Of a stretch of 64,000 nt of DNA, positions 11,243 through 16,180 are shown one piece after another. A program made the position numbers and the translations under genes. Under the pieces are notes generated by a model. The model was not told the DNA's origin, did not search any database, and saw nothing but the letters and a program-made list of their open reading frames with translations. Source of the stretch: a virus. Where the stretch lies: the IMG/VR virus record IMGVR_UViG_3300017971_000007; one strand, given 5' to 3'. The stretch's first letter is position 1. Every line of letters begins with the position of its first letter.

Positions 11243-11550
11243 ACGGTTTCAAGAAAACAATCGAGAGACTTGGACTAGTAGAAAAAGGGGTAATCGATGA
11301 ACTCAAATTGGGGGGCGAGGAGCTTCTAGATTATCTCGTCCAAAAGAAGATACTTGATAGTGAGTATCTTCCAATTATCAAGGAAGTGGCCGAGGATGTA
11401 GGAAGCGAGAACCAGCTTCAAGTTCTTAGGGGGGAACAGAAGATACTGAAGGTTCAGTGCTCTCACGTGATCAAGAAATCGGCGAAGATAATTGCTAGGA
11501 TGAGAGATGCTCCTATCCCCAAGAAACATGATCTAGTGGCAGTAAAATGA
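11239..11550 (+). CDS. Hypothetical protein
   Basis: 103-aa ORF with ATGA overlaps on both sides. Confidence 0.6.
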   Translation: MNGFKKTIERLGLVEKGVIDELKLGGEELLDYLVQKKILDSEYLPIIKEVAEDVGSENQLQVLRGEQKILKVQCSHVIKKSAKIIARMRDAPIPKKHDLVAVK

Positions 11551-12947
11551 ACTCATCATTCTTCGACGAATTAACAAAGATAGCAGAAGAGCATAAACTA
11601 CAAGGACATACTAATTTCCAGGGTATTCCGATTGCCGTAGAGAATAGGAAAGGGTCTGTTAGGAAAGGAACAGATTCTGACGGGAATGAGTGGCGAACGG
11701 AGATGAAGTACCCGTACGGGTATGTGAAGGGGACGAAGGGGGCTGATGGGGAAGAAATCGATGTCTATGTCGGTCCTAATAAAGAATCCCCTAATGCTTT
11801 CGTAGTCCATCAAAAGGACAAGGATACCGGGAAGTATGACGAGGATAAATGCTTTCTTGGGTTCGATTCCAAGAAAGATACTAGAGAGGCTTTCCTGAAA
11901 CACTACGACAGCCCGAAATTTTTGGGGCCTATATCCAAGGTTCCGATAGAGAAGCTAAAAGAAAAAATAAGAGAAGGTAAGCAGCTGACGAAAATCAGTT
12001 CTTGTGTGGAATTTGAGAAAAATGCTGTCGACCCCCTCACGTTGGCCGGATTAGGGGCCTTGTCCCATGTAGGCGCGAACCTGGCCGTGAAAGCGGGACA
12101 CGGAACAAAATTTCTTAGGAATGTGAGAAGCGGAGGTCTAGCCAGAGGAATCCGTTCTGGAATAGAAGGAAAGCCGCAGGGAATCGGAAGCAGGATGCTG
12201 GAAACGTGGGCCGGTCCGGAATTGGTGGCCACAGAGCATGCTGGAAGAGGTATCGGAAAGATATTAAGAGGGAGAACTCCTCATCAGCAAAAAAGAGCAC
12301 TAAAGAAATTACGAAAAGCCGTGGCTATGAACCCAAACTTAAAACATACCCCGATAATGGAGGACGTAGTAGGAGGAGTAACTAAGGCAATAGAGGGAGG
12401 ATTACCGAAAGCTGGACCGGTTAGAGAAGCTGGAAGGCTTGCAAGAGCTGCCGCATTCGCTCCAGCACCTATTCTGGCCGCGACCGAACCCTCGGCCTTA
12501 GTTCATATGGGAATTAATGTGGCCAGAAAGGGTGTAGCTCAAAGCAAAGCAGGCAAAGAGTTCATGAGAAAGGGTATGAAACGTGGTCTAGTAGAAGGGG
12601 GAGCAGATGCTGCTCCTTCTGTTAGGGAGAGGATAATGGATGTCCTAGTTTCTCCAGCCGCCTTGCACACAGAACGTATGGGCAGAGCCATGGCGGACCT
12701 TCCTGCAACAGCTAGTAAAGAGCAGTTAGCTAGATTAACCGGAGCTAGCCATAGTTTGATGGGTCAAAAAAGATTGAGAGGTGCTATCAAGAGGGCACCT
12801 AAGGCAGCCGAAGAAAAAATTAAAGGCGAGGCAAGACAGATTAGAGGCGATATCCAGGAAATGGCCCGTCCGGCTCCAAGGAAGGCTTCTCCAGCACCTT
12901 CTGTCGGTGCTACAGATTACGGCATACCATTGGGAGTAAGATGGTGA
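11547..12947 (+). CDS. Two-domain protein: FFDELTKIA tag, inorganic-pyrophosphatase-like (InPase) domain, then a Gly/Ala-rich basic helical domain
   Basis: FQGIPIAVENRKGSVRKG..W...MKYPYGYVKGTKGADGEEIDVYVGP...HQ.....YDEDKCFLGF...A...HY matches the InPase domain of phage/plasmid polyvalent proteins. Confidence 0.75.
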   Translation: MNSSFFDELTKIAEEHKLQGHTNFQGIPIAVENRKGSVRKGTDSDGNEWRTEMKYPYGYVKGTKGADGEEIDVYVGPNKESPNAFVVHQKDKDTGKYDEDKCFLGFDSKKDTREAFLKHYDSPKFLGPISKVPIEKLKEKIREGKQLTKISSCVEFEKNAVDPLTLAGLGALSHVGANLAVKAGHGTKFLRNVRSGGLARGIRSGIEGKPQGIGSRMLETWAGPELVATEHAGRGIGKILRGRTPHQQKRALKKLRKAVAMNPNLKHTPIMEDVVGGVTKAIEGGLPKAGPVREAGRLARAAAFAPAPILAATEPSALVHMGINVARKGVAQSKAGKEFMRKGMKRGLVEGGADAAPSVRERIMDVLVSPAALHTERMGRAMADLPATASKEQLARLTGASHSLMGQKRLRGAIKRAPKAAEEKIKGEARQIRGDIQEMARPAPRKASPAPSVGATDYGIPLGVRW

Positions 12948-13516: not shown

Positions 13517-13533
13517 TCTTAATTAGGTTAGTG

Positions 13534-13566
13534 AGGGGAGTCCGCGAAAACGGACTCCCCTTTTTT
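13534..13566 (+). terminator. Rho-independent terminator at the convergence of the + and - gene blocks
   Basis: GGGGAGTCCG-cgaaaa-CGGACTCCCC followed by TTTTTT. Confidence 0.9.
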
Positions 13567-13724
13567 CATTTAATCACTGCATCATTTAGAAGACGGGTTC
13601 TTAACTTGGATATTGAATCTAGATTTTTGGTAGATATCCCTATCTTATTAGCCAATTTGATGAGCTGTTTCTCAGATAGGGAATAGAATTCGTCTTCGCC
13701 TAGTTCGACGAAACTAGGCTCCAC
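13566..13724 (-). CDS. 52-aa ORF absent from the ORF track (HeH/Rho-N-like); probable -1 frameshift extension of the upstream gene
   Basis: GTG overlaps the upstream TAG. Translates as VEPSFVELGEDEFYSLSEKQLIKLANKIGISTKNLDSISKLRTRLLNDAVIK, with TGA ending at 13566. Confidence 0.75.
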   Translation of the reverse strand: MEPSFVELGEDEFYSLSEKQLIKLANKIGISTKNLDSISKLRTRLLNDAVIK

Positions 13725-13733
13725 TACTTTCCC
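13698..13733 (-). promoter_or_regulatory. Programmed -1 ribosomal frameshift signal (G GGA AAG, 7-nt spacer, 8-bp hairpin)
   Basis: Slippery heptamer 13733-13727 sits in frame just before the TAG. Stem GCCTAGTT/AACTAGGC at 13719-13698. The -1 frame is open for 53 further codons. Confidence 0.7.
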
Positions 13734-14419
13734 TCTTCCTCCTCCTCTTCGAGCTTCTCATTTATTTCTTTGTCCAAATCACTGAATCCGAGATCGTCTG
13801 GAGCGTTATCGATGGTCAGAACCTCATCGTTTTCGAGCCACGAGCCGAGATGGAAAATCATTTCTCTGGCTGCCCATGCATTATCGGCGGATTCTTTCAG
13901 AGCCTTAGTTACCTCTTTTCCTCTCGCATCTGCTGCATCGGAAAGCCCGTCTACGATTTCTCCGATGTCATCGATCTTCTTTTCTTGTCTTGTCAATCGC
14001 TCATCAATTTTCTGAAGAATTTGCACCAAATCAGACTGCTGGCTTGGGGATGAGGCTTTAGAAGACTTTTTGGATCTCTTTTCTTGTCCCTTCTCCTCTT
14101 CCTCCTCGTCCTTTGATTCTTCCTCGTCTTTCGCTTCTTCTTCATCCACTTTTCGTCCGCGTCCCCGTTTTAGCCTGGACCCGCCACTCTTCTCCTTTTT
14201 CAGCTTACTCCCTTTCCCCTTCTTCTCCTTCTTTTCCTTCTTGTCTGATTTTTCGTCTTCTTCCGCAGCCCCTCCGTCTTGGTTTTCGAAGAGCCAATCC
14301 TTAAGCTCATCAACTCCCATCTCGTTGGCTTTCTTGGCGCTGAGACCTAGCTTCTTGACCAAACGCCGGGCTTCAATCCCTGTCATATCATCGATTTCTT
14401 CTCGGCTATACTTTGACAT
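13724..14419 (-). CDS. Highly charged protein: N-terminal HeH/Rho-N-like helices, K/E-rich linker, coiled coil
   Basis: 231 aa; RBS GGAGG upstream; low-complexity linker. Confidence 0.7.
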   Translation of the reverse strand: MSKYSREEIDDMTGIEARRLVKKLGLSAKKANEMGVDELKDWLFENQDGGAAEEDEKSDKKEKKEKKGKGSKLKKEKSGGSRLKRGRGRKVDEEEAKDEEESKDEEEEEKGQEKRSKKSSKASSPSQQSDLVQILQKIDERLTRQEKKIDDIGEIVDGLSDAADARGKEVTKALKESADNAWAAREMIFHLGSWLENDEVLTIDNAPDDLGFSDLDKEINEKLEEEEEEGK

Positions 14420-14615: not shown

Positions 14616-15051
14616 TTCTATCTATCAACTCCCTATTCTCCAACACACATTCCAAAACCTTCAAATCCGTGCAGTCCCAACAGCATGTATCGCATTGAAC
14701 TTGGGAGTGGATGAACTTCCAGTATTCGCATATCGCTCCCTTTAGAACATTCCTATCTTTGTGTACAGGATTTAATTTGAATTGTTTCGGAGATTCCACT
14801 CCTCTTATCAAATCCATGAGTAGTTCCCTGCCCATTCCCCTATGAATCACCTTCCACATTTCCTGTTCTTCTTTTAACGGAAGTCCGTGCAGGCACAACT
14901 CGACTAACTCACTGTCATTGAATTCATCCCACGGAATGTATGTTGTAGAATACTCAGTCTTTCCTCCTTTCTTTTTGTACTCCTGAATCAGGCAATATCT
15001 CTCATTTGTATGATTTGGTTCAGGAGGGAGTGAGGGTTCTATTTTACTCAT
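14608..15051 (-). CDS. Hypothetical protein with a C-terminal Cys cluster
   Basis: QCDTCCWDC...EC; overlaps both neighbours. Confidence 0.65.
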   Translation of the reverse strand: MSKIEPSLPPEPNHTNERYCLIQEYKKKGGKTEYSTTYIPWDEFNDSELVELCLHGLPLKEEQEMWKVIHRGMGRELLMDLIRGVESPKQFKLNPVHKDRNVLKGAICEYWKFIHSQVQCDTCCWDCTDLKVLECVLENRELIDRNE

Positions 15052-15515
15052 GTACCACTCCTAAAACATCTTAGTGATACGTTTACGGAAGGTTCTCTAA
15101 CGGTCTTGGTTTTTGCGCAAAACAAGACAAAAGTGGAACTATCATCTATCCCAGTCGCATACTTTATGGCGTCTTCAAGAAGTTTGATTCTATTGCTCAG
15201 GTCTATCCTCTTCCATTTTGAAGATGACTTTCCCTTCTCCCATCCCTTGTTTTGGATATCACTGAATTTGAAGACGAGATACAGACCGTATTGCTCAGAT
15301 AAAGAGAACTTATTTAAAACGAGGTCACCTGATTTGGATATAGTATTTACGGCTCTAGTCCTCCAAGCATATGCCTCTTTGGTCAAAGCTCTACCTTTTC
15401 CAGGTATGTTCCTGTATATCTTGTTGCTTGTGGGAGGCATGGGAAGTTCCACATCAACAACTGTTCTTGACTGGCATATGCCAGTCAAGATTCTGTCTAT
15501 CTCTTTTTTGACCAT
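15048..15515 (-). CDS. RusA-like Holliday junction resolvase
   Basis: LPMPPTSNKIYR and RIDLSNRIKLLEDAI...GIDDS follow the RusA DxxNxxKxxxDA...DD pattern. Confidence 0.8.
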   Translation of the reverse strand: MVKKEIDRILTGICQSRTVVDVELPMPPTSNKIYRNIPGKGRALTKEAYAWRTRAVNTISKSGDLVLNKFSLSEQYGLYLVFKFSDIQNKGWEKGKSSSKWKRIDLSNRIKLLEDAIKYATGIDDSSTFVLFCAKTKTVREPSVNVSLRCFRSGT

Positions 15516-16180
15516 CTTTCCTCTCTTGTGGAGCGAGATTCCCCTCTGACTGGTTTCGTGTATTTGGAATCTCTGGAAAATCCAGATACACGTGCTCGTA
15601 CCCGCTGTCTGTGATTTTCGATGAACGAGGCTCTATTGCCGTGCCTCTCCCCATCCAATGCAATAGTCACGTTTCTGGATACAGTCTTCAGTGTGGCATC
15701 GGCACAATTTACTATCGGCAGCATCAGGTCGTGCATACACTTCAGTTTCAACAATTCAGAATTAGCGTGGACATATCTCGCATCTACAATCTGTTTCGAG
15801 TCTTTCACCTTCTCTGTACCGTCTTTAGCCAATCTGACCTTCGCGCTCACGAATTTGAATACCTCCTCAGCCTCCCTCATTCTCGATATCAGACATCCTA
15901 GTTGATGAGAGACGTATTCATAATACGTGTGAGCTACCAGATACAGCTCTCCGAGTTCCTGCCATGTAAGTTGTTGTAAATTTCTCGGTATGTGAGGAGA
16001 GCCGTTTTTGAAGAATTGTGAATCAGTGAATCCAGGTTTCTCCTTGACGTATATCCCCATGCGATGGAGCTCATCCATCGCTCTATCGGATACTCTATAG
16101 GAAGCGATTGCATCTGGAATATCCGCGTACGGCTTTCCGCTCATCAACTTCTTGGCTTTAGGAGAAATCCTATCTCTCAT
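15497..16180 (-). CDS. Helical protein, possibly a UvsY-like recombination mediator
   Basis: Long amphipathic helices within the recombination cluster; the functional call is weak. Confidence 0.35.
   Translation of the reverse strand: MRDRISPKAKKLMSGKPYADIPDAIASYRVSDRAMDELHRMGIYVKEKPGFTDSQFFKNGSPHIPRNLQQLTWQELGELYLVAHTYYEYVSHQLGCLISRMREAEEVFKFVSAKVRLAKDGTEKVKDSKQIVDARYVHANSELLKLKCMHDLMLPIVNCADATLKTVSRNVTIALDGERHGNRASFIENHRQRVRARVSGFSRDSKYTKPVRGESRSTREERWSKKR

Follow-up and report, generated by a model that had tools for sequence, protein, structure and literature searches.

Programmed −1 ribosomal frameshifting is a textbook mechanism. The −1 frameshifts of tail-assembly chaperone genes, including lambda G/GT, are reported to have been described by Xu and colleagues in 2004 (cited in PMC10885494). 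In lambda G/GT the slippery heptamer is G_GGA_AAG, the slip site is at the very end of the short open reading frame (ORF), and the minor product is extended at its C terminus. A −1 shift near the 3′ end that gives a C-terminal extension, and two isoforms at a set ratio, is also found in gene 10A/10B of phage T7 and in the major head protein gene of phage A2. In E. coli, the replication-associated dnaX gene (tau/gamma) has a −1 slip on an X_XXA_AAG-type site, with a stem-loop near downstream and a GGAGG upstream. A comparable arrangement is described here at the 3′ end of the gene for a 231-amino-acid protein, P0001, in the IMG/VR virus record IMGVR_UViG_3300017971_000007. The whole stretch of DNA analysed, 64,000 nucleotides in length, is termed the window. 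This gene is the last of a leftward operon, and comparison of sequences suggests, with a probability of roughly three in four, that it is recoded by programmed −1 ribosomal frameshifting.

The P0001 locus resembles lambda G/GT in the heptamer itself, in the position of the slip site and in the logic of a minor, extended product; as in other tail-assembly-chaperone frameshifts, the arrangement is kept in relatives despite sequence divergence. It differs from lambda G/GT in that the gene belongs to another family and is situated in a replication/recombination module, not a tail module. In addition, the predicted extension adds a small SAP/HeH-like domain, a second copy of the module at the protein's N terminus, and a hairpin lies 5–7 nucleotides downstream at every locus. 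The likeness to dnaX consists of the type of slip site, the association with replication, the near downstream stem-loop and the upstream GGAGG. However, the dnaX shift truncates the protein whereas the present shift would extend it, and the GGAGG runs found here, 4–7 nucleotides from the site, are Glu codons and are not established as a Shine-Dalgarno stimulator. The T7 and A2 genes encode capsid proteins, whereas the present gene is non-structural by its context. This is apparently a new and undescribed case of a well-known mechanism; a full-text search of the literature found neither the gene family nor the recoding site. The features of the locus in the window are:

14419..13724, minus strand: zero-frame ORF of 231 amino acids (P0001, founding member of a phage protein family that is uncharacterised), ending GAG GGA AAG TAG
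14282..14404, minus strand: N-terminal SAP/HeH/Rho_N-like domain, residues ~6–46 (AlphaFold model and structural matches)
14063..14257, minus strand: Lys/Glu-rich linker, predicted to be disordered, residues ~55–119 (predicted local distance difference test, pLDDT, <50)
13733..14047, minus strand: C-terminal helical region, with a long helix at residues 125–197 and a helix at 212–229 (model and family alignment)
13733..13727, minus strand: slippery heptamer G_GGA_AAG, in the X_XXY_YYZ register of the 231-amino-acid frame
13720..13726, minus strand: 7-nucleotide spacer UAGUGGA, which includes the zero-frame stop TAG (13726..13724)
13719..13698, minus strand: putative stimulatory hairpin GCCUAGUUU-CGUC-GAACUAGGC, with a 9-bp stem and a 4-nucleotide loop
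13566..13727, minus strand: −1 frame extension, 53 codons plus TGA (13568..13566)
13581..13697, minus strand: predicted second SAP/HeH-like domain, extension residues ~11–49 (model and structure search)
13722..13735, minus strand: alternative GTG start (13724..13722) overlapping the stop as TAGTG, with GAGGG (13735..13731) 6 nucleotides upstream
13533..13562, no strand assigned: G+C-rich terminator hairpin between two convergent operons

An earlier inspection of the window by sequence alone (the sequence-only reading) had drawn attention to the end of the 231-amino-acid gene, to a hairpin 7 nucleotides past the heptamer and to an open −1 frame that starts VVEPSF and runs to the terminator. All three are present, on the minus strand. 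The hairpin stem has nine pairs when the closing U.G pair is included, and eight, as originally described, if Watson-Crick pairs alone are counted. The 42 nucleotides past the heptamer fold better than all but 3.2% of the 42-nucleotide windows in the surrounding 6 kb. The 53-codon extension reads VVEPSF...LLNDAVIK, its frame ends adjoining the terminator hairpin, and the predicted frameshift product has 284 amino acids with the junction ...EEGK-VVEPSF.... The same reading had ascribed a stimulatory role to upstream GGAGG runs. Such runs are indeed there, and all loci have GAGG or GGAGG 4–13 nucleotides upstream of the slip site, but in the window they are simply poly-Glu codons and throughout they are inseparable from Glu/Asp-rich coding, such that a Shine-Dalgarno role cannot be told apart. 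An in-register XXXYYYZ motif within the last 12 codons, followed by a long −1 extension, occurs in four of the 89 window ORFs of at least 100 amino acids. The window heptamer by itself is uncommon and not decisive; it is conservation that lifts the case above chance.

In the proposed mechanism, most ribosomes would terminate at the TAG and produce the 231-amino-acid form, in which a SAP/HeH-like domain is followed by a charged disordered linker and then by a long helical region. Some of the ribosomes would pause over the hairpin 7 nucleotides downstream, tRNA-Gly and tRNA-Lys would slip from GGA-AAG to GGG-AAA, and 53 further codons would be read. The minor 284-amino-acid form would end in a second SAP/HeH-like domain and thus have modules at both ends. 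The slip would be stimulated by the hairpin and possibly also by the adjacent stop codon; the anatomy of the signal and its conservation across relatives are observed, and slippage and its rate are inferred. In the window, the overlapping GTG may additionally give some free 52-amino-acid product.

Relatives of the P0001 gene were sought at the protein and DNA levels. An exhaustive HMMER search yielded ∼22 P0001 homologues of 178–226 amino acids, none of them ∼280 amino acids in length, and in alignments family members are ∼22–38% identical to P0001. A further 26 small ORFs of the extension family have been called in other metagenomes. Six relatives were read at the DNA level: L001, reached through the neighbouring Cas4-like gene; L004, reached together with L005 through an alignment of three homologues; and L008, L009, L010 and L011, reached by a search with the extension peptide. 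With the window, these make seven distinct loci on different metagenome contigs. Other searches were empty or nearly so. A word-indexed search of 5.8 billion proteins matched P0001 to itself alone. GenBank phages gave no match by blastn, nor by tblastn with the homologue P0005, and IMG/VR gave no match for P0001 alone, for the alignment A4 or for P0008. The extension had no match in genome contigs, and thus there is no host clue from this source. The alignments A1 and A2 were too varied to be of use in searches for loci. When metagenomes were scanned with the Cas4-like neighbour as anchor, two contigs came up, both too short to extend as far as the gene.

At all seven loci the extension ORF is in the −1 frame and overlaps the 3′ end of the P0001-family gene. 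The slip motif varies. The window has G_GGA_AAG, with the zero-frame stop directly after the motif (0 codons); L001 has G_GGA_AAC, with the stop one codon after it; L004 and L011 also have G_GGA_AAC, with the stop five codons after it; L008 has G_GGG_GAA, again with the stop at five codons; and L009 and L010 have G_GGU_UCC, with the stop at 0 codons. GGGAAAS is therefore present in four of the seven loci, and one more case is implied by two overlapping proteins. Overlapping protein pairs fix the DNA nearly completely, and the same procedure recovered the true L004 DNA; on other contigs, the pair P0020/P0039 implies GGGAAAC and the pair P0025/P0053 implies CCCCCCG. The codon ahead of the Gly codon ends in G at all seven loci (GAG, AAG, GGG, CGG, TCG, CAG and CGG), and these codons specify E, K, G, R, S, Q and R, respectively. 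At the non-canonical motifs, GGGGGAA and GGGUUCC, the A-site tRNA would re-pair through a central G:U pair. For a set of about a thousand annotated actinophage frameshifts, GGGGGAA is reported as the 'fivetwo' motif, and a 'threetwotwo' class that re-pairs through G:U is described as well (PMC10885494). The motifs of all six relatives belong to classes described in that work. L009 and L010 have the block GGGUUCCUGAC in common, but the flanking zero-frame protein sequence differs.

A hairpin follows the slip motif in every case, with the inner stem beginning 5–7 nucleotides after the motif at seven of seven loci. The stems are of four unrelated sequence types: GCCUAGUUU, GGGGG, GGCGACGAG-type and GCCGGGC. 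By minimum free energy, the downstream 42 nucleotides rank in the best 0.4–11% of the 42-nucleotide windows of the same locus at all seven loci. Conservation in homologues, which the sequence-only reading had proposed as a check, is thus found in the form of an in-register slip motif (four variants) plus a downstream hairpin at each locus.

Is the extension read from the slip site? The extension peptides of the seven loci align from the first codon past the slip to the end (alignment A9), with the consensus R.GT..P..E...T....EF..L...EL..LAD.IGVSLQG...IEQARTRLLNDA. Four of the seven loci have no ATG, GTG or TTG ahead of the conserved part of the extension. In L008 the extension frame has no such codon until 16 codons before the stop; in L009 the sole start is an ATG inside the first helix of the domain; and in L001 and L011 the first start comes after the conserved linker. 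In public data, gene callers report the extension ORF at 29–81 amino acids with inconsistent starts. Purifying selection on the extension frame is seen from the slip site onward. Between L009 and L010, the 23 codons right after the site have a nonsynonymous divergence (dN) of 0.094 and a synonymous divergence (dS) of 1.39 in the extension frame (dN/dS ∼0.07), and the same codons show dN > dS in the other two frames. For the extension family overall, dN/dS is ∼0.15. Because starts are missing or inconsistent and selection runs from the slip site, independent initiation is not the general mechanism. The absence of a start proper to the −1 ORF is a property of the family, not strictly of the window locus, where a GTG is present. 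None of ∼30 family proteins that were checked has the extension in frame, and thus an in-frame fusion has not replaced the signal; a search for longer proteins carrying the extension also found none, which is weak evidence. To judge from the sequences, this is the pattern usually left by a frameshift that is retained because it keeps two isoforms in a fixed proportion. The two isoforms put forward by the sequence-only reading, of 231 and 284 amino acids, the longer with a second HeH-like module, are supported as predictions by the motif and hairpin at seven of seven loci and by the homologous −1 ORF under purifying selection.

Members of the P0001 family consist of an N-terminal module, a K/E- or K/A-rich linker of low complexity and variable length, and a helical C-terminal region with the motif LT.DNAPDGLGF (also LT.DNAPD.LGF), followed by ..E(C).GN and an acidic tail (alignment A1). 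The AlphaFold model of P0001 has four short helices at residues 6–46 with pLDDT values of 86–96, and the extension is modelled as helix-extended loop-helix at pLDDT 79. In a structure search with VIA-align, the top rows for the extension are the SAP domain of MANF (Z 5.7, root mean square deviation, rmsd, 1.2 over 39 residues), CDNF and the Rho N-terminal domain (Z 5.6), followed by Hcc-1 SAP, emerin LEM, Ku70 and YqbF; overall the top rows have Z 4–5.7 and rmsd 1.2–2.3 over 39–44 residues. With Foldseek, the top rows for the N-terminal module are YqbF, the Rho N-terminal domain and SAP domains, all of them non-significant. The small size of the domain accounts for the non-significant rows and modest Z-scores, and the assignment is therefore one of fold class only. 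Structural rows from the Atlas for the N-terminal module are Rho_N clusters, and an Atlas feature search gave sub-threshold hypothetical clusters alone. Both terminal modules are accordingly modelled as SAP/HeH/Rho_N-like at the fold level, on the strength of these predicted structures. They resemble the known SAP/HeH/LEM/Rho_N domains (MANF SAP, 6h9u; Rho, 1a62; Ku70, 1jjr; B. subtilis YqbF, 2hjq) in the predicted fold of two helices and an extended loop, but differ in having no Pfam profile match; PF02037, PF12949 and PF07498 match neither the extension nor the N terminus, even at permissive E-values.

The sequence-only reading had noted that the extension resembles the protein's own N terminus. 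This resemblance is invisible to BLASTP, which gave no significant match between the two, but hhalign aligns the N-terminal and extension profiles at E 5.6e-5 (probability 66%, 34 columns, in matching register) and the predicted folds agree. This supports the extension as a duplicate, or paralogue, of the N-terminal module. At the level of sequence families, Pfam and PHROG hold none for P0001 or the extension, solved-structure searches likewise found no family corresponding to P0001, and Protein Data Bank (PDB) sequence searches with the alignments A8 and A9 returned designed repeats or noise alone.

Several observations weigh against a frameshift that yields the two-module protein. The case for a trans-frame protein is a comparative one, and the DNA-level comparison covers seven loci only. 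The 5′ arm of the hairpin in L004, L008 and L011 doubles as the conserved ..GDE-stop tail, and because this common arm encodes the tail, the three hairpins are not independent. In E. coli, slippage is far weaker with AAC in the A site than with AAG. The fold matches reach Z no higher than 5.7 on a 40-residue domain, and sequence-based family searches (Pfam, PHROG) gave no assignment. In the window, the GTG at 13724..13722, with a good GAGGG Shine-Dalgarno sequence 6 nucleotides upstream, could start the extension. Finally, in 15 of 24 family proteins there is a Glu-Cys pair (GAR TGY), whose bases, read in the −1 frame, spell ATG or GTG at a distance of two codons from the following GGG AAA. 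Such members could have an overlapping start within the gene, and part of the apparent heptamer conservation could come from dual coding.

The last two points lead to explanations by independent initiation. In one, the locus has two separate genes: the 52-amino-acid ORF is translated only from its GTG, by termination-reinitiation or coupling at TAGTG, and the heptamer is incidental to the Glu-Gly-Lys codons. The overlap of GTG and stop, the good spacing of the GAGGG, the annotation of the 52-amino-acid protein (P0050) by gene callers and the frequency of stop/start overlaps in the leftward operon all fit this explanation. Nevertheless we regard it as unlikely, as a start at the position of the window GTG is missing in six of six relatives, four of which have no start of any kind before the conserved part of the extension; moreover, the −1 relation, slip motif and hairpin are kept at seven of seven loci, and extension-frame selection begins at the slip site. 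The sequence-only reading had itself set production of the 52-amino-acid ORF solely from its own GTG against frameshifting. The relatives, which lack the start, speak otherwise, although in the window the GTG route may act as well. A different version places the start of an overlapping gene at the ATG or GTG hidden in the zero-frame Glu-Cys codons and attributes GGG-AAA to a dual dipeptide constraint (Gly-Asn, Gly-Lys). The Glu-Cys pair stands two residues before Gly-Asn in the 15 proteins mentioned, L004 has an ATG 28 nucleotides before its zero-frame stop, and ten of the called extension ORFs begin with M or V just upstream of the basic linker, eight of them reading (M/V)xGK or MRRGK. However, the internal start is absent from the window, L001, L008, L009, L010 and L011, which keep the extension, slip motif and hairpin; in L004 the GGAGG is 1 nucleotide from the ATG, a poor spacing; and this version explains neither why the hairpin is conserved in position nor why the codon ahead of the Gly codon ends in G at all seven loci. 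Since six loci lack the Glu-Cys start, it is a secondary route at most, and as the explanation of the family it is very unlikely.

The remaining explanations concern the nature of the gene and the reality of the extension. The sequence-only reading had suggested a displaced tail-assembly chaperone pair, akin to lambda G/GT. The identical heptamer, familiar from lambda, and the logic of a short and an extended product are compatible with this, but neither P0001 nor the extension matches a tail chaperone in Pfam or PHROG, in the window, L001 and L004 the gene closes a conserved operon for replication and recombination, the P0001 gene faces a convergent InPase gene, and the predicted architecture of SAP-like domain, disordered linker and long helix is unlike that of a chaperone. 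The suggestion did not survive the family searches and the operon position, and we give it almost no weight. Nor does an accidental open −1 frame past a chance heptamer, without function, seem at all probable: the four window ORFs with an in-register motif and a long −1 extension indicate that such a coincidence can arise, but the extension is a conserved protein family with the low overall dN/dS given above. Transcriptional slippage was dropped as there is no long homopolymer, and sequencing error was dropped as the −1 layout is common to seven independent assemblies with different sequences.

If frameshifting takes place, in most relatives the shift would exchange an acidic tail (..NEEGDE) for an Arg-rich linker (..KRGRRRV..), because GAG GAC GGC GAC GAG reads CGA GGA CGG CGA CGA in the −1 frame. 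One set of bases gives the acidic tail (..NEDGDE, ..NEEGDE, ..EDEGDE) when read in the zero frame and the Arg-rich beginning of the extension (RGRRRV.., RRGRRV..) when read in the −1 frame. In L004:4609-4650, L011:2420-2460 and L008:2432-2470, three overlapping constraints fall on ∼20 nucleotides, namely two reading frames and the 5′ arm of the hairpin. A conserved Cys is also present in the acidic low-complexity tail (E-C-x-G-N) in the same 15 of 24 proteins, where either the Cys or the hidden start may be selected (alignment A1; L004:4597-4609).

From the fold class and the gene neighbourhood, the modules may bind nucleic acid, and the isoforms may be mono- and bivalent, able to cap or bridge DNA. 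The function of the P0001 family probably depends on the ratio of the forms with one and two SAP/HeH modules. It is tempting to go further, though we hold this only tentatively, and to view the frameshift as a conserved switch of valency and charge in an undescribed phage replication-module family. In the short form a single module would go with an acidic tail; in the long form an Arg-rich linker and a second module would take the tail's place, and this would change DNA capping into bridging or condensing at a ratio set by the RNA signal. Under the same tentative proposal, the family would be a documented case in which canonical slip sites (GGGAAAS, CCCCCCG) and sites that re-pair through G:U (GGGGGAA, GGGUUCC) replace one another naturally at a single orthologous position in a gene other than a tail gene.

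The value of the locus is in annotation and in this natural series of slip sites. To our knowledge, tail chaperones are almost the only case in which phage annotation pipelines join the two parts of a frameshifted gene. In the present family, a conserved candidate recoding site in a replication-module gene appears to be consistently mis-annotated as a protein of 180–230 amino acids plus an orphan ORF of 29–81 amino acids with arbitrary starts. The orthologous slip sites, both canonical and G:U-re-pairing and with differing hairpins, could serve for testing the rules that bacterial frameshifting obeys.

The leftward operon that the P0001 gene ends is one of replication and recombination. It comprises, in order, genes for a ResIII helicase, UDG, DUF932, a DnaB-like helicase, primase, DNA polymerase A, a RecA/UvsX-like protein, a resolvase-like protein, a Cas4-like exonuclease, a 227-amino-acid protein, RusA and two small proteins, and then P0001. 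Overlapping stop and start codons are common in it. The order Cas4-like exonuclease, RusA, two small genes and P0001-family gene is kept in L001 and L004, and in L004 the conserved stretch is complete and takes in both the UvsX-like recombinase and the convergent InPase gene. In the window, the operon that converges on the P0001 gene ends with an InPase-domain protein (Pfam PF18823, E 1.5e-45) at 11547-12947 on the plus strand; L004, a 149-kb relative, has the same convergent InPase arrangement (L004:6080-7051, minus strand). The terminator hairpin at 13533..13562 is single, with 12 bp, and has a T-run on its plus-strand side only. On the minus strand an A-run precedes the hairpin and there is no U-tract; termination of the leftward operon may rest on the hairpin alone. 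Rfam and tRNA scans of the window gave no matches.

A second motif of interest is found upstream in the same operon. The ORF for the 227-amino-acid protein (16180..15497, minus strand) ends TCA AAA AAG AGA TAG, with a dnaX-type A_AAA_AAG one codon before the stop (15497-15520). The −1 frame at this point belongs to RusA (15515..15048), a gene that also has an ATG and a Shine-Dalgarno sequence of its own. At the corresponding junction the TCG AAA AAG of L004 does not form a canonical heptamer, and an A-run is missing from L001. The A_AAA_AAG may be a second frameshift site that fuses the 227-amino-acid protein to RusA, or it may just represent N-terminal Lys codons of RusA.

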